From assembly GCA_049322655.1 (NCBI GenBank), contig JBMORP010000006.1:13863-77862 (forward strand): 64,000 nt of DNA, read 5' to 3'. Position numbers and translations under genes: made by a program. Under the pieces are notes generated by a model. The model saw only the letters and a program-made list of their open reading frames with translations, had not been told where the DNA came from and did not search any database. Below, piece after piece: positions 764 to 44,711 of the stretch. Numbering within the stretch: position 1 is the stretch's first letter; each line of letters starts with the position of its first letter. Source of the stretch: Patescibacteria group bacterium (GTDB lineage Bacteria > Patescibacteriota > Microgenomatia > UBA1400 > PJMF01).

Positions 764-850
764 ATACAACCACCGTTGATTCTCTTGTCTTTTTCCTCCA
801 TAATAGTTGAAGAAACTTTTCGTTTATTAGTCTTGCAAGGATTTCTAGTT

Positions 851-2629
851 ATGGCAGAAACCACTAAAAATTTTATTTATCTTCTTCCAGACGTAGCCTA
901 TATTGTCGAGTTGGTGAAAACCAAAGATGATGAGAGTTTTAAGATCAGAGACTATCTACAGGTCAATGGTAGTTTTATGGATGAGAATGAAATTCTAGAT
1001 GAAAGTATCAAAAAGCTAGCCAATAGACTTCAATCAAAAACTTATGAGTTGGTTTTACCTGATTTTTTATTTACTAATACAGTGGTTAATGTTGAAGAAG
1101 CCGGAGAAGAAAAGATTCTTGAATATGTTAAAAGCAAGATTATCCCTGATTTAGATATTTCAGATGAAACTCATGAGCTTCATACTTTTGTTTTGACAGA
1201 ATTTAAAGGTCAGGCTAAAGTTCAACTTTCAGCCTTGGAGAAAACTGTTCTCAAGCCTTTGCGCACGATTTTTACTCAAAGTGAAGATTTGAAAGTAGAT
1301 AAGATTTATCCTTTGAGTTGGGTGACTAAATCACTTATCTCTCTAGAGCCATCAATTAGTGTGGTACAGCTGGGAGCTAATCTCTACATGGCTCAGCACT
1401 ATATTGGTATTGATCAAGCAAATAATGCTGAAGTAGAAGATGTAGAAAAGATTATTGAATCAATTAAAACTCTTAAAGGGGCTGAACCAAGTATTCAGAC
1501 AGTCTATTTATTAGCTAATGCGTTAGTAGAAGATAAATTAAATAATGGGTTGAAGGGAACTTTACCTGTCCAACAGTTAGCTAAAGAATCAGAAGACTCT
1601 GAAATGCCTTCTTATGTGAAGCAAGTCATCGAAGCTGGAATTAAATCAGTTGGAATAGCAGATTACAAGGTACCAAGTTTTAGTTTTTTGGTTACAACAG
1701 ACTCAGCTGTCGTTGTTGATAAAGATCAACCTGAGGATTCAGTCGTTATTGAAAAAAAAGCAGTCAAGTTAGAAAGTCCTTTGCCTCCACCTACAGAACT
1801 CGGTACATCGGTTGAAGAATCTCAAGAACAAGTTAAAGTTTCTAAAGATGATGAAGAAAAAGTGGCTGACGAGCCTGAAAAACAAGTTGAAGAGTCTATA
1901 GAAGATAAAGCAGAGTCAAAAGTAGAAGAAGTTGAAGAGCAGCCAGTTGAAACAACCACTAAAGAAAAAACTGTAGAGAAAGAAGATAGGCTTGAAGAAA
2001 AAACCGATAGCTCTGTTGAACAAGTGGATTTACGTCAATTTATGAGTGAGGATTCTGAAGATAAAGAAACTAAAACACCCTCACCAGAGAAAACAGAAGC
2101 TAAGCCGGAAGAAACCCCGATGGCTAAAAAAGTGATCAAAAATGATACTGGGGTGAATAGCATGGTCAAGATGGTTTTTGTTGCCCTGGTAAGTTTCTTT
2201 ATTACTGTCGGCATTGGTTTGGGCATTGGTTTGGGTTTTTTGACTTTTACCAACAAACAACAGACAGCTAATGAGTCGATGGTAACTCCTGTTGCTGAAC
2301 TCTCCCCTACTTTGGAACCAACAACTACACCAACTTTAGAGCCAATTGATAGGGCTAGTTATACTGTCCTGGTGGTTAATGCTACGACCAAAGCTGGTTA
2401 CGCTGGAGAAATAGCTACTGTTTTGGAAAAAGCTGGTTTTACTGATGTGCAAGCAGCTAATGCCAAGGGAGATTACGAGACAGGCAACTTTATTTTGGCC
2501 AAGGAAGATAATAACAATCTGATTAAAACTCTAGAGGAAGATATGGCTTTAACTTTGGAGTTTTCAGAGGAAAAAGAGCTTGAAGATGCGACCGATAAAT
2601 ATGATTTTGTAATTGTTCTGGCCGAGTAA
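851..2629 (+). CDS. Membrane protein with C-terminal LytR_C (LytR/CpsA/Psr C-terminal) domain; unknown N-terminal cytoplasmic domain and a long acidic E/K-rich low-complexity linker
   Basis: ATG at 851 (MAETTK...) preferred over the TTG at 776. About 130-aa E/K/D-rich linker, one TM helix (VFVALVSFFITVGIGLGIGLGFL), then YTVLVVNATTKAGYAGEIATVLEKAGFTDV, typical of the LytR_C domain. Confidence 0.55.
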   Translation: MAETTKNFIYLLPDVAYIVELVKTKDDESFKIRDYLQVNGSFMDENEILDESIKKLANRLQSKTYELVLPDFLFTNTVVNVEEAGEEKILEYVKSKIIPDLDISDETHELHTFVLTEFKGQAKVQLSALEKTVLKPLRTIFTQSEDLKVDKIYPLSWVTKSLISLEPSISVVQLGANLYMAQHYIGIDQANNAEVEDVEKIIESIKTLKGAEPSIQTVYLLANALVEDKLNNGLKGTLPVQQLAKESEDSEMPSYVKQVIEAGIKSVGIADYKVPSFSFLVTTDSAVVVDKDQPEDSVVIEKKAVKLESPLPPPTELGTSVEESQEQVKVSKDDEEKVADEPEKQVEESIEDKAESKVEEVEEQPVETTTKEKTVEKEDRLEEKTDSSVEQVDLRQFMSEDSEDKETKTPSPEKTEAKPEETPMAKKVIKNDTGVNSMVKMVFVALVSFFITVGIGLGIGLGFLTFTNKQQTANESMVTPVAELSPTLEPTTTPTLEPIDRASYTVLVVNATTKAGYAGEIATVLEKAGFTDVQAANAKGDYETGNFILAKEDNNNLIKTLEEDMALTLEFSEEKELEDATDKYDFVIVLAE

Positions 2630-2729: not shown

Positions 2730-3635
2730 ATGGCAGCAAATCTGCATATTTCTATTTCAGCCGAAACTATTACTAAGTTCGGATCTCTCAACTACTCAAA
2801 CTCACTTCTTACCAGTACGATTGTCACCCTTCTAATGGTGACTTTTTTTGTTTTGGTGAATCGAAGTTTGGGCAATAAAAAGAAGCTAGGTGGCTTGCAA
2901 AACTTGGCTGAGTTCATTATTGAAGGACTCTATAACATGGTCCAAGGAGTAACGGGCGATCATAACAAGACCCGTTTTTTTATGCCTTTTTTCATGTCTT
3001 TTTTCTTTTTTGTATTATTTAATAATTGGTTTGGCTTGCTTCCTGGAGTTGGGACTATTGGTTTCAAAGAAACCAAGACAGGGACTGAGCATGCTGTTTT
3101 ATTAGACAGCAAAGTTAAAGTTCCTGTTAGTCAAGTTCAAGCCTCAGAACCAGTTGATACAGTTGAAGAAACAGTGACTGAAGTGGTTGGAGCTAGTGCT
3201 GAAGAGTCTGCAGAGATTTCTGCAGAAAAGAACGAGGTGTTTGTGCCCTACCTCAGAGCTGGGACAGCTGATTTGAACACTACTTTGGCTTTGGGATTAT
3301 TTTCTCAAGTAATGGCTCAAATTGTAGGTGTTAAGTACCTTGGCTTTTCTTATTTTAAGAAGTTCTTTAACTTCAAAGACCCAATTATGTTTTTTGTTGG
3401 AATTTTAGAGTTAGTCTCAGAATTTTCTAAGGTTTTGTCTTATGCTTTCCGTTTATTTGGAAATATTTTTGCAGGTGAAGTTTTGTTAATAGTGATTGGA
3501 GCTTTAATTCCAGTGTTGGTACCAATGCCGTTTTATGGTTTAGAGATTTTTGTTGGTTTCATTCAGGCTCTAGTATTTGCCCTTTTATCATTGGTTTTCT
3601 TTAATGTTGCAACTCTTCATGGAGAAGATCACTAA
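2730..3635 (+). CDS. atpB: F0F1 ATP synthase subunit a
   Basis: C-terminal helices with the conserved R/E motif region (FRLFGNIFAGEVLL..., FVGFIQALVFALLSLVFF). First gene of the atpBEFHAGDC order. Contains an unusual acidic insert in a loop. Confidence 0.85.
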   Translation: MAANLHISISAETITKFGSLNYSNSLLTSTIVTLLMVTFFVLVNRSLGNKKKLGGLQNLAEFIIEGLYNMVQGVTGDHNKTRFFMPFFMSFFFFVLFNNWFGLLPGVGTIGFKETKTGTEHAVLLDSKVKVPVSQVQASEPVDTVEETVTEVVGASAEESAEISAEKNEVFVPYLRAGTADLNTTLALGLFSQVMAQIVGVKYLGFSYFKKFFNFKDPIMFFVGILELVSEFSKVLSYAFRLFGNIFAGEVLLIVIGALIPVLVPMPFYGLEIFVGFIQALVFALLSLVFFNVATLHGEDH

Positions 3636-3668
3636 ATTAGTAATAAAAAAGTAAAAAAAGTACATTAG

Positions 3669-3908
<240 letters not shown>

Positions 3909-3921
3909 ATAAGGAGAAAAA

Positions 3922-4407
3922 ATGGACATTCAATTACCACAGATTATTTATCAGCTGGTTAACTTTGGTGTTGTTTTTGGCGCAGTAACCTATCTTCTTT
4001 ATAAACCAGTACAAAAGATTTTAGACGATCGAGCTAAAAGAATTACCGATAGTTTAACTGAAGTTGAAAAAATTGAGGCTGAAAAAGAAAGAATGGCTAC
4101 GCTGAAAAGTAAAGCTAAAAGAGAAGCTGACAAAGAAGCTACTGAAATTTTGGAAGCCGCTCAAAAAACAGCTGAAAAAAACAAGAAAGAGTTAGTAAAT
4201 AAAACCAAGGAAGCTCTTCAAGAAGAAATGAAAAAGGCTCAAGCCTCTTGGCAAGAAGAGAAGAAAAAACTACTAGCTGATTCCAAGAAGCAGATGGTTG
4301 ATGCTGTGATCGAAGTTAGCTCTTTGGTTCTAGGTAAGAAACTTGACGTTAAAACAGATAACAAGTTTATTGCCGATAATTTAGAAAAAATCCTTAAGGA
4401 TATTTAA
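3922..4407 (+). CDS. atpF: F0F1 ATP synthase subunit b
   Basis: N-terminal TM helix followed by a long charged coiled-coil; position in the operon. Confidence 0.8.
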   Translation: MDIQLPQIIYQLVNFGVVFGAVTYLLYKPVQKILDDRAKRITDSLTEVEKIEAEKERMATLKSKAKREADKEATEILEAAQKTAEKNKKELVNKTKEALQEEMKKAQASWQEEKKKLLADSKKQMVDAVIEVSSLVLGKKLDVKTDNKFIADNLEKILKDI

Positions 4408-4414
4408 TTTAGTT

Positions 4415-4639
4415 ATGAAAAAAGTCACTGTGATTACTGCCAACGAACTTTCCAAAGCTAATCTGGAAACCTTGCAGAAAGCTTTAGTTAAAAAATATGG
4501 TCGAGATCTTGAATACGAGTTTAAATTAGATCAATCAGTAGTTGGTGGAATTAAGCTAATAATTGGTTCAAAAGCAGTTGATATGACTATCAAAGCTAAA
4601 CTTTCCCAAATTGGGAAACAAGTAGTGGACAAGATCTAA
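4415..4639 (+). CDS. atpH: F0F1 ATP synthase subunit delta (OSCP), unusually short (74 aa, C-terminal domain only)
   Basis: Operon position between atpF and atpA. C-terminal OSCP-like sequence (LDQSVVGGIKLIIGSKAVDMTIKAKL). No room for an N-terminal domain between the atpF stop (4407) and this start. Confidence 0.65.
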   Translation: MKKVTVITANELSKANLETLQKALVKKYGRDLEYEFKLDQSVVGGIKLIIGSKAVDMTIKAKLSQIGKQVVDKI

Positions 4640-4657
4640 GCCTAAAGAAAATAAAAT

Positions 4658-6211
4658 ATGCCAATTAATAAAACCTCTTCTAAAAAAACCGTTAATCAAG
4701 CCTTTGATTTGAAAGAATTATTTAAGGATGTTACCCCTACTTTGACCGTTGATTCGGTTGGAGAAGTAATCTCTTATTCTGATGGGGTGGTTAAGGCTTC
4801 AGGGTTGGATGAAGTCCAGGCTGGAGAAATTGTGCAAATTGCTGATAGCAAGTTTGGTTTGGCTCTTAACCTTAACAGGGATGATGTCGGAATTGTGGTA
4901 ATGGGTGATGCAATGGGCATTGGAGTTGGAGATACAGTTGCTAGAACTGGCAGAATTCTTTCTGTTGGGGTGAGTGATGCTATGTTGGGCAGAGTAATTA
5001 ATAGTTTGGGTGAAGCTATTGATGGTAAAGGGGCAATTAATCCAAGTAAGTTTATGCCTTTAGAAAAAGTTGCTCCAGGAGTGATGAGTCGTAAATCTGT
5101 TTCTGTACCTTTGCAAACAGGAATTAAGGCAGTTGACGCCATGATTCCAGTTGGTCGAGGTCAAAGAGAGTTGATTATTGGCGATCGTTCTACTGGTAAA
5201 ACTGCGGTGGCTTTAGGCACAATCATTAATCAAAAAGAAGAAGATGTAATTTGTGTCTATGTGGTTACTGGTCAGAAAAGAGCAGCTGTGGCTCAAACCA
5301 TGCAGATTTTGGAAGAACATGGAGCGATGGCTTACACCATTATTGTTTCGGCTACTGCTTCTGATAGTGCCGCTGAACAATTTTTGTCACCATACACAGG
5401 TTTAGCTGTGGCTGAATATTTTCTAGATCAAGGTAAAGATGTGTTAATTGTTTATGATGATTTATCTAAGCATGCTCAGGCTTATCGTGAAATTTCTTTA
5501 TTACTTAGAAGACCAAGTGGTCGTGAGGCATATCCTGGAGATGTTTTTTACCTCCATTCAAGACTTTTAGAGAGAGCTTGTCGTCTCAATGATAATTATG
5601 GTGGTGGTTCTATTACTGCTTTGCCAATTATCGAGACCCAAGCTAACGACGTTTCAGCATATATTCCAACTAACGTCATTTCTATTACAGATGGTCAGAT
5701 TTATTTGGAGGCTGATTTGTTTAACTCAGGGATGAAACCAGCTATTAATGTTGGTTTATCAGTATCTCGTGTGGGAAGTGCTGCTCAGCTAAAAGCAATG
5801 AAACAGGTGGCTGGTACCATGAAGTTAGATTTAGCTCAGTTCAGAGAACTCCAGGCATTTGCTCAATTCAGTTCAGACCTTGATGAACGTACCAAAAAAA
5901 CTTTAGATCGGGGTTTAAGAGTCAATGCTGTTCTAAAACAGGGTTGGGATAAACCACTCAACGTAGCTGAACAAGTGGCGGTAATTTTTGCTGCTGTAAA
6001 TGGCTATTTGGATGAAGTTAAAGAAGAATTAATTCGAGACTGGGAATTATCTTATTTAGACTACCTTCATACGGTGCACCAAGCTTTATTAAATGAGATT
6101 ATGAAGGAAAAGAAACTTTCTGATGATTTAATTGCAAAGTTAAAAGAGATTGTTTCTACTTTTAATAGTCTGCACAAAGAGTTGATGATTGTAAAAGAAG
6201 AGACTAAGTAA
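4658..6211 (+). CDS. atpA: F0F1 ATP synthase subunit alpha
   Basis: Walker A GDRSTGKT; alpha-subunit-wide similarity. Confidence 0.95.
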
Positions 6212-6216
6212 CGCTT

Positions 6217-7092
6217 ATGGCCAACCAAAGACAGGTTAAACGCCGCATTGGCACTGCTCAAAATATCTCCAAGATTACTAAGGCTATGGAGATGGTTGCT
6301 GCTAGCAAAATGAAAAAAGCCCAAGATCAGGCTTTAGCTGCTAGACCCTATTCTCAAGCTCTATACGACTCAATTACTACGATCTCTCAGGCATCCAAAA
6401 TCACTGAACATCCTCTTCTTTCAAGTCATGATGAGGGTATTTCTGTGGTGGTGATGGTTGGCACTGACAAAGGTTTGTGTGGAGCTTTAAATGGTAATTT
6501 ATTGAAAGTGTTAGCTAGTTGGAAAAAGAATCACCCAACAGGAGAAGTAATTGCGATTGGTAAAAAAGCTGTTTTAGCAGCTAGGTCATTGGGGATGATT
6601 ATTCATGCTCAATTTACTAATTTACCAGAGTATATTACGGTTGTTGATGTGATTCCGGTGACGACTTTAATTTTGAATGGTTTTACTAGTCATCAGTTCA
6701 AATCTGTTGATATTTTGTATACAGATTTTATTAATACTTTATCTCAAAAGCCAAAACAGGCTCCATTATTACCGATTTCAAGATCTTTCAAACCAGATGT
6801 AGTTGAGAAGAAAATCGAAGAAAAGATGCAAATCAAAGAATATATCTTTGAGCCAAACCCTAAGAAGATTTTAGATAGTTTATTACCATTTTTTTTGGAA
6901 AATACGATTTACCATTCTTTTTTAGAGGCTAAAGCTAGTGAGCACTCTGCTCGGATGGTAGCGATGAAGAATGCTAGTGAAAATGCTGGTGAACTAGTAG
7001 AAGAATTAAAACTAGTTTATAACAAGACTCGTCAGCAAGGGATTACCACTGAGTTATTAGATATTATTTCTGCCACGATGGCATTAAGTTAG
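6217..7092 (+). CDS. atpG: F0F1 ATP synthase subunit gamma
   Basis: N-terminal MANQRQVKRRIGTAQNISKITKAMEMVAASKMKKAQ and C-terminal ITTELLDIISATMAL are hallmarks of the gamma subunit. Confidence 0.9.
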   Translation: MANQRQVKRRIGTAQNISKITKAMEMVAASKMKKAQDQALAARPYSQALYDSITTISQASKITEHPLLSSHDEGISVVVMVGTDKGLCGALNGNLLKVLASWKKNHPTGEVIAIGKKAVLAARSLGMIIHAQFTNLPEYITVVDVIPVTTLILNGFTSHQFKSVDILYTDFINTLSQKPKQAPLLPISRSFKPDVVEKKIEEKMQIKEYIFEPNPKKILDSLLPFFLENTIYHSFLEAKASEHSARMVAMKNASENAGELVEELKLVYNKTRQQGITTELLDIISATMALS

Positions 7093-8508
<1,416 letters not shown>

Positions 8509-8511
8509 TTT

Positions 8512-8931
8512 ATGAAAAAGTTTTCGCTGAAAATTGTTTCTCAAGAAAAAGAACTCCTCTCTTCAGAGGTTGAGTCTGTTTCTTTACCAACAGTTGAAGG
8601 AGAAATTACGGTGCTTTATAAACATATTCCATTATTTGCTCATCTGAAAACTGGTCAGTTGATCTATAGGGTTGATGGTGAAGAAAGAATTGTGGTTGTC
8701 TCTGATGGTTTTGTTAATGTTTCTCCAAGTAGTGAAGTTACAGTGATGGTAGACAGTGGTATTTTGGCTAGAGATATTAGCCTTGAGAAAGCTGAACAAG
8801 CTGTAAGAGAAGCTCATGAGACGATGGAAAAAACTCAAGATCAACGAGAATTACTAATGGCAGAAGCCTCTTTGAGGCAAGCAATGATGGAAATTAGAGT
8901 TGCTCAAAAGACTAAAAAAGCCAGAAATTAA
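8512..8931 (+). CDS. atpC: F0F1 ATP synthase subunit epsilon
   Basis: Operon position and size (139 aa); N-terminal beta-sandwich plus C-terminal helical region pattern. Confidence 0.8.
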   Translation: MKKFSLKIVSQEKELLSSEVESVSLPTVEGEITVLYKHIPLFAHLKTGQLIYRVDGEERIVVVSDGFVNVSPSSEVTVMVDSGILARDISLEKAEQAVREAHETMEKTQDQRELLMAEASLRQAMMEIRVAQKTKKARN

Positions 8932-44179: not shown

Positions 44180-44263
44180 GCCAGAGTGCTGGAATTGGTA
44201 GACAGGCTAGTATCAGGAACTAGTGCTCTTTCGAGTGTGAGGGTTCAAGTCCCTCCTCTGGCA
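44180..44263 (+). tRNA. tRNA-Leu (anticodon CAG), type II with long variable arm
   Basis: Acceptor GCCAGAG/CTCTGGC, anticodon stem CTAGT/ACTAG, loop ATCAGGA, 15-nt variable arm, T-stem GAGGG/CCCTC; 84 nt. Confidence 0.85.
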
Positions 44264-44361
44264 CTAGCACATTTAAATATAAAAACTCGGTTTTTCACTT
44301 TGACCAAGTTGTTATATAATGTCAGTCTTGTGAGTGATCACGTCCTTTAAAACTAAACAAT

Positions 44362-44435
44362 GCGAGAATAGCTCAGTTGGCTAGAGCGTCTCCTTGCCAA
44401 GGAGAAGGTCGCGGGTTCGAGTCCCGTTTCTCGCT
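44362..44435 (+). tRNA. tRNA-Gly (anticodon GCC)
   Basis: Acceptor GCGAGAA/TTCTCGC, anticodon stem TCTCC/GGAGA, loop TTGCCAA. Confidence 0.9.
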
Positions 44436-44452
44436 CAGCGTGTGCAAAATAA

Positions 44453-44537
44453 GCCCAGGTGGCGGAACTGGTAGACGCGCAGTCTTGAGGTGGCTGTGGA
44501 GCAATCCGTGGAGGTTCAAGTCCTCTCCTGGGCACCA
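44453..44537 (+). tRNA. tRNA-Leu (anticodon GAG), type II; 3' CCA encoded
   Basis: Acceptor GCCCAGG/CCTGGGC, anticodon loop TTGAGGT, 13-nt variable arm, terminal ACCA. Confidence 0.85.
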
Positions 44538-44546
44538 CCATCCTTT

Positions 44547-44620
44547 GGACTCGTAGCTCAGTTGGTTAGAGCGTTCGGTTTACATCCGAAAGGTCAGAGG
44601 TTCGAGCCCTCTCGGGTCCA
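44547..44620 (+). tRNA. tRNA-Val (anticodon TAC)
   Basis: Acceptor GGACTCG/CGGGTCC, anticodon stem TTCGG/CCGAA, loop TTTACAT. Confidence 0.9.
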
Positions 44621-44638
44621 CTTCTTTTGTGCAAACAC

Positions 44639-44711
44639 GCCAAGCTAGCCAAGTTGGTCACGGCACATGTCTGAAAAACATGGGATTGAGGTTCGATTCC
44701 TCAGCTTGGCA
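44639..44711 (+). tRNA. tRNA-Phe (anticodon GAA)
   Basis: Acceptor GCCAAGC/GCTTGGC, anticodon stem CATGT/ACATG, loop CTGAAAA, 4-nt variable region. Confidence 0.85.

Follow-up and report, generated by a model that had tools for sequence, protein, structure and literature searches.

The 74-residue δ subunit encoded between the genes of subunits b and α in the ATP synthase operon of a small-genome Patescibacteria group bacterium (GCA_049322655.1) is real and under selection, and consists of the C-terminal domain of F-ATP synthase δ as a free-standing protein (atpH-short; positions 4415–4639, forward strand). The window analysed here is a stretch of 64,000 nt of contig JBMORP010000006.1, which is about 652 kb long. 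The gene itself is already known (NCBI labels the protein F0F1 ATP synthase subunit delta) and is, as gene annotation, nothing out of the ordinary. The meaning of a missing δ N-terminal domain (N-domain) has been changed by two 2025 studies: its removal can double the H+/ATP ratio (PMC12229609). On the sequences compared, a whole clade of Patescibacteria encodes the unfused equivalent of the engineered fragment, and sister lineages encode tandem copies of it.

Identity and extent of the short delta gene

Pfam OSCP (PF00213) matches the open reading frame (ORF) with an E-value of 3.7e-15 and 56.9 bits (cutoff 22.3), and aligns its residues 3–69 with profile positions 104–171/172, i.e. with the C-terminal domain (C-domain) only. 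Sequence matches in the PDB fall in the same region, the protein aligning with residues 119–184 of 190 in bovine OSCP, 108–177 of 178 in Bacillus PS3 δ, 108–172 of 177 in E. coli δ and 90–152 of 157 in Chloroflexus δ. Each of the NCBIfam δ models aligns via its last ~70 positions and scores below its curated full-length equivalog cutoff (57.5 bits for TIGR01145 and 95–328 bits for the NF models): TIGR01145 reaches 37.7 bits, and the best score is the 47.1 bits of NF009967, for a cutoff of 200. Annotation that relies on such full-length cutoffs can overlook the atpH of these genomes. The AlphaFold2 monomer model, calculated from an alignment of 55 diverse homologues, is of moderate confidence (pLDDT 68.9) and displays the β-α-β-β-β-α topology of the δ C-domain (a four-stranded sheet and two helices). 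The best matches of Foldseek against the PDB are all δ/OSCP C-domains (43 of 43, with TMq values of 0.64–0.78). The profile and PDB alignments thus bear out the original prediction of a δ subunit of about 74 residues that resembles the C-terminal part only.

The gene is part of a complete F-type operon (2730–8931, forward strand) with the classical order atpBEFHAGDC, in which all eight genes are intact. The others, all on the forward strand, are atpB (subunit a, 301 residues, 2730–3635; PF00119, E = 4.9e-45), atpE (subunit c, 71 residues, 3693–3908; PF00137, E = 2.7e-16), atpF (subunit b, 161 residues, 3922–4407; PF00430, E = 2.4e-19), atpA (α, 517 residues, 4658–6211; Pfam domains), atpG (γ, 291 residues, 6217–7092; PF00231, E = 1.2e-85), atpD (β, 464 residues, 7114–8508) and atpC (ɛ, 139 residues, 8512–8931; PF02823 and PF00401). 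The Pfam scan took in seven subunits, atpD being assigned from its ORF and from the ATP-synt_ab domains carried by its orthologues in three related loci (L001, L002 and L004). The atpF product aligns over positions 1–157 of the 159 of the NCBIfam model PRK13461; it is the only b gene, which implies a b2 homodimer, and its reading frame differs from that of δ. Its stop codon is followed after 7 nt by the ATG of δ, and the TAA of δ (4637–4639) is followed after 18 nt by the ATG of atpA. The in-frame stop-to-stop ORF opens at position 4385, leaving room for at most 10 extra residues upstream of the 74, and the upstream DNA is occupied by atpF. The correct operon position, the normal and unfused subunit b and the lack of spare coding space had all been read from the DNA beforehand, and all three readings hold.

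Short ‘δ’ entries can arise by frameshift, truncated gene calling or operon decay, as for the 72-residue proteins P0176 and P0226 in proteobacterial MAGs. It is nevertheless scarcely credible that the 74-residue protein is such an artefact or a pseudogene. No N-domain fragment adjoins the gene, the space upstream being filled by atpF, and the other subunits are all intact. A word-indexed protein search returned seven protein clusters with 76–100% identity, every one of exactly 74 residues, and the same operon slot is found in independent assemblies from NCBI, JGI, ENA and Logan (L001, L002 and L004). The slot is kept where δ is 34–39% identical (L005, L006 and a JGI contig, with a δ of 76–77 residues and a b of 160–161 residues), and a δ of 67–77 residues recurs in it across independent assemblies from different samples, down to 25–38% identity. 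Codon comparison with L001, L004 and L008 gave dN/dS values of 0.10–0.20 (dS 0.4–2.4), a sign that the short frame is under purifying selection. No frameshift concealing a longer atpH was found. The 72-residue ‘δ’ of Burkholderiaceae-like MAGs, considered as examples outside the CPR, was rejected as a product of frameshifts (L088, 3687–4219, and L089, 4001–5800): one adjoins a 116-residue OSCP fragment and the other a truncated α and γ. Nothing comparable is seen at the δ of the window. Because these two 72-residue ‘δ’ are frameshift artefacts, counts of short δ subunits taken from protein databases only are inflated.

Some other features of the window and of the related operons should be noted. 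Subunit a (residues 27–291 aligned with profile positions 2–216 of PF00119) carries an insertion of about 50 residues relative to the Pfam model (window 3060–3260), an acidic low-complexity stretch with many Glu, Val, Ser and Thr residues; relatives differ in the length of this insertion, with a subunit a of 277–314 residues. Directly upstream of atpB lies the gene of a membrane protein in which a weak LytR_C domain accompanies a long low-complexity region of acidic character (776–2629, forward strand). At this position, the window and four of the five related loci with called genes, including one with a δ only ~39% identical, encode a membrane protein of 610–740 residues; the corresponding genes are at 2400–4235 in L001, 2378–4210 in L004, 1381–3240 in L005 and 1341–3185 in L090, and the products in L005 and L090 (614–619 residues) have no Pfam match. 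GreA follows atpC in most of the loci that share this gene. Five tRNA genes are clustered within ~530 nt (44180–44711, forward strand); the Rfam scan of the window gave ten tRNAs and no other match, and composition is even across the window.

Distribution of delta architectures and partner surfaces

Searched exhaustively with HMMER, 1.84 billion cluster representatives yielded 1623 matches. Lengths were broken down for 157 proteins, namely 150 of the 1623 matches, those listed, together with the seven proteins of 74 residues. Among these, 61 of the 157 are 70–79 residues long, about 20 are 141–157 residues long with two C-domains in tandem, and a few combine an N-domain with two or three C-domains. 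All of the proteins of at most 82 residues examined among these 157 start with a methionine at or near the domain boundary. A profile-based word-indexed search returned mostly contig-end fragments of ordinary δ subunits and was left out of the distribution.

A second sample, which was not conditioned on δ, comprised the 80 species-representative genomes with the α subunit most similar to that of the window; each was classified by the gene upstream of α, and the sample is biased towards relatives of the window's genome. None of the 14 nearest genomes (α at least 64% identical) has a full-length δ: ten have a single C-domain (L008, L009, L010, L014–L019 and L021) and the other four have two in tandem (L011, L012, L013 and L020). 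They are titled Paceibacterota, Pacebacteria, Woesebacteria, Patescibacteria BroJett032, one TM6 complete genome, one ‘uncultured bacterium’ and one ‘bacterium isolate’, some of them seemingly mislabelled. A δ of 67–77 residues between a b of 159–165 residues and α is found in L001, L002, L004, L005, L006, L008–L010, L014–L019 and L021. In six further Patescibacteria-like loci the N-terminal region is cut to 37–71 residues, and in 53 of the remaining loci the C-domain of δ starts at residues 94–189 (287 in L028); five loci fall outside these classes, either at a contig end (L025 and L034) or with no C-domain match (L032, L051 and L057). In this sample of 80 genomes, biased as it is towards relatives, full-length δ occurs in none of the 20 Patescibacteria-like operons. 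Comparison of atpH lengths with related CPR genomes, suggested as a check of the original prediction, returns either 67–77 residues or tandem C-domains. As judged from these genes, the N-domain is lost across a whole clade of Patescibacteria, the limits of which are approximate since record titles disagree with operons. In the literature searched, we found no description of a C-domain-only δ architecture or of its distribution in Patescibacteria.

The disagreement of titles is clearest for L011, L013, L016, L018, L043, L046, L053 and L066, which are titled ‘uncultured Pseudomonadales’ or ‘Gammaproteobacteria’ (binchicken and SRP co-assemblies) and have Patescibacteria-like atp operons; their α is 56–71% identical to that of the window, and the titles look like placeholders or errors. 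Intermediate δ subunits of about 107–141 residues (stop to stop), with 37–71 residues before the C-domain, are encoded in L026, L027, L043, L046, L053 and L066. Their N-terminal regions are shorter than the 85-residue N-domain of Chloroflexus, and the N-termini of their α subunits look closer to canonical ones.

Tandem δ subunits of about 141–157 residues without an N-domain (P0009–P0012, P0014, P0015 and others) are encoded at the atpH position in Patescibacteria-like operons and in the TM6 complete genome, at L007, L011 (908–1348), L012 (2233–2679), L013 (4528–4968) and L020 (4566–4955). In the AlphaFold2 model of the tandem protein, two well folded C-domains (pLDDT 83) are connected through about 14 linker residues of low confidence; with a pTM of 0.47 the domain orientation is undefined, and the terminal helix is missing from the first repeat. 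On this model, the first repeat could provide a second b2 site or, equally, only a second α anchor that replaces the N-domain. The TM6 locus (L020; CP011212.1, candidate division TM6 GW2011_GWF2_28_16, Dependentiae, 173147–184586) has an α 65% identical to that of the window, with an N-terminus nearly identical to those of the Pacebacteria loci L017 and L021. This resemblance suggests either that the entire operon has passed between lineages or that the taxon is mis-assigned.

Other proteins combine an N-domain with three C-domains (360–412 residues) or two (253–299 residues), such as P0054, P0044 and P0025, and also P0047, P0048, P0089, P0125 and P0135. P0054 (L091/L092, 5001–6095; 44 index blocks, 23 contigs read) lies at the atpH position in an atp operon that is ordinary in other respects. 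The presence of three C-domains for three α subunits suggests another possible route to multiple stalks. A candidate natural fusion of the δ C-domain to α was also considered: in P0070 (L090, 5001–6661), from a Patescibacteria-like operon, the C-domain is joined to the α barrel and the N-terminal tail of α is deleted. It was set aside, as the α gene is itself split by a frameshift into two ORFs of 227 and 326 residues; a sequencing error or a pseudogene is possible.

Canonical α subunits open with an amphipathic helix, EEISxxIKxQIxxF, that is bound by δ. This motif is absent from the clade with single or tandem C-domains, as seen in an alignment of 18 N-termini; instead, a variable tail of about 8–30 residues rich in Lys, Ser and Thr precedes a short hydrophobic motif (SFDLKGLF, AFQLRDLF, TLADLV or QLAELI in relatives), which lies about 10–15 residues ahead of the β-barrel. 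Residues 1–33 of the α of the window (4658–4756) comprise such a tail and motif. Conservation of the α N-terminal helix had been proposed as a test; the canonical form is not kept, in line with the changed α–stalk contact that had been envisaged. The C-terminal part of subunit b is conserved in the clade (consensus VLGxKLDxKxDxKLIxxxLxxxLK).

Attachment and number of peripheral stalks

We searched for the missing N-domain in six frames with filters off, using a hidden Markov model built from 51 canonical δ subunits of the fetched loci, which recovers 55 canonical matches at E < 1e-5. It finds no N-domain in the whole 64-kb window, in the single-C-domain loci or in the 5 kb on either side of the operons of 18 related loci; among the loci searched, L026 (δ of about 130 residues) alone shows a faint N-domain remnant. 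The window contains no second copy of the δ C-domain, and the 74-residue ORF is its only δ-like gene. As b is of 159–165 residues in 18 of 18 related loci and α is of normal length, the N-domain is not fused to a neighbour. A fusion to atpF or atpA, the other outcome that would have told against the original prediction, was thus sought and is absent. The role of the N-domain might still be filled in trans, by an atpH whose N-domain is encoded separately or by another, unrelated protein acting as a cap, elsewhere in the genome: the search covered 64 kb of the ~652-kb contig, and small unannotated ORFs adjoin some related operons (for example a 90-residue ORF after atpC). We consider this improbable, given the lack of an N-domain signal in the window and around the related operons, the divergence of the very α helix that the N-domain normally binds, and the fact that relatives have doubled the C-domain instead of keeping the N-domain.

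A stalk of the N-ATPase type, in which b and the δ C-domain would be made as one polypeptide through a frameshift or readthrough, can also be considered. In N-ATPases, AtpF is a b subunit fused to δ's C-terminal region, the operon has the order atpDCQRBEFAG and the enzyme is always a second ATPase (Dibrova et al. 2010, PMC2881411). The δ of the window gives a weak match to the C-terminus of TIGR03321 (positions 178–245 of 246, E = 2.1e-5), and b and δ together (161 and 74 residues) come close to the length of the N-ATPase b (PMC2881411). This score is, however, 24.5 bits for a cutoff of 224.7, and the best NCBIfam matches are to ordinary δ models. The order is atpBEFHAGDC, without atpQ, atpR or extra membrane genes. 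The distance from b to δ ranges from −4 to 90 nt among relatives, in all three frame relations; with gaps and frames that vary in this way, there is no conserved recoding site for a b–δ fusion. We reject an N-ATPase identity on the gene order and the separate ORFs, and regard a fused product as highly improbable.

The reading favoured here is a minimal δ shared by the lineage. In the Chloroflexus F1Fo, the β-sheet of the δ C-domain is hydrogen-bonded to the N-terminal barrel of α, and its two helices grip the kinked C-terminus of b (PMC12002316). In PS3, the C-terminal region of δ is bound by one α N-terminus, and the N-domain, located on the pseudo-threefold axis, by the other two (PMC12229609). 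The earlier statement that the C-domain binds b is correct for the b contact and incomplete, since this domain also contacts the α crown and one α N-terminus (PMC12002316, PMC12229609); loss of the N-domain alone need not leave the stalk unattached. By homology, the helices of the minimal δ would grip the b dimer at its C-terminal ends, and its β-sheet would rest on the barrel and tail of α. The N-terminal bundle, which normally caps the axis of the crown and binds the other two α N-terminal helices, has been lost in the clade, and the canonical helix motif of α along with it. On this homology, the minimal δ probably still clamps the b2 stalk to the α barrel and tail of the F1 crown. The remodelled stalk, altered α–stalk contact or lineage-specific minimal δ proposed at the outset is supported, and neither a frameshift nor, within the 64-kb window, a displaced N-domain speaks against it.

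How many stalks are clamped in this way is a further matter. The N-domain of δ has been described as what holds F-ATP synthases to a single peripheral stalk (PMC12229609). Ueno et al. (2025) deleted residues 2–104 of PS3 δ and fused residues 105–178 to α, for fear that a free C-domain would not bind stably; cryo-EM showed canonical binding of b2, with up to three stalks, about 2.2 times the amount of a and about 1.8 times that of b, and an H+/ATP ratio of 5.8 versus 3.0 (PMC12229609). The Chloroflexus enzyme, with its shortened N-domain, has two stalks (δ2 b4 a2; PMC12002316). Whether nature has multi-stalk enzymes other than these few is a question raised in both 2025 papers (PMC12229609, PMC12002316). 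By alignment, the window protein is the natural, unfused counterpart of the 74-residue PS3 fragment. We infer that nothing in its 74 residues would confine it to one α. Lacking the N-domain that limits the enzyme to one stalk, the ATP synthases of this clade are candidates for enzymes that are naturally multi-stalk.

In such an enzyme, a free δ on each α, with no N-domain to break the threefold symmetry of the crown, would recruit two or three b2 stalks and possibly two or three a subunits, and the H+/ATP ratio would be doubled or tripled. This would be a special case of the minimal δ described above, with no contradiction between the two. The engineered PS3 enzyme and the Chloroflexus enzyme lend themselves to this reading, as do the sister lineages with two C-domains per chain and the Firmicute-like δ with an N-domain and three C-domains, which suggest that natural complexes can tolerate more than one C-domain. 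Stoichiometry, however, is not given by sequence; binding of a free domain may be weak, and the assembled enzyme may still have one stalk. The first repeat of the tandem δ lacks the terminal helix and may be an α anchor rather than a second b2 site, and A/V-type enzymes have two or three stalks with a single a subunit. On balance, we hold a naturally multi-stalk F1Fo in this clade to be a tentative possibility, somewhat less probable than a conventional stoichiometry.

If it were so, the higher H+/ATP ratio would allow ATP synthesis at a low proton-motive force, or ATP-driven pumping at a lower pressure. The minimal δ also bears on the role of ATP synthase in CPR bacteria, which have no respiratory chain. 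On the multi-stalk reading, fermentative, respiration-less episymbionts could sustain ATP synthesis on a very small proton-motive force, and the tandem and triple C-domain δ subunits of other lineages could be covalent versions of the same solution. In either case, the clade offers a natural test case for the role of the N-domain in setting the number of stalks and the H+/ATP ratio.

Comparison with known systems

Canonical δ/OSCP (PF00213, TIGR01145) and the δ of the window share a homologous C-domain and the slot between atpF and atpA, which is conserved in relatives. The window protein differs in lacking the N-terminal helical bundle (~100 residues), in scoring below every full-length cutoff and in having a partner α in which the N-terminal helix motif has diverged. 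AtpF of the N-ATPases (TIGR03321) likewise belongs to an F-type enzyme that keeps only the C-terminal region of δ, without an N-domain; there, the δ region is fused to b, whereas b and δ are separate in the window and the gene order is classical.

The tandem δ of sister Patescibacteria and TM6 (P0009–P0012; L011–L013 and L020) is found in the same α-similarity clade and in the same slot, also without an N-domain, with two C-domains per chain and a flexible linker of ~14 residues where the window has a single domain. The two-stalk F1Fo of Chloroflexus aurantiacus (Zhang et al. 2025, PMC12002316; PDB entry 9ITJ) also has a reduced δ (157 residues), the C-domain of which, aligned with the window protein over residues 90–152, touches the α barrel and the b C-terminus. 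Its four-helix N-domain dimerises and links the two stalks, and has no equivalent in the δ of the window. Another counterpart is the PS3 δ-ΔN-α construct (PMC12229609; PDB entry 9JC1), which has no N-domain and retains fragment 105–178, with which the window protein aligns over residues 108–177. In this construct and in the natural δ–α fusion of Acidaminococcus fermentans noted by Ueno et al. 2025 (PMC12229609), δ and α form one chain, whereas in the window a stop codon and an 18-nt gap separate them, so that attachment to α must be non-covalent and the copy number of δ is not fixed at three.
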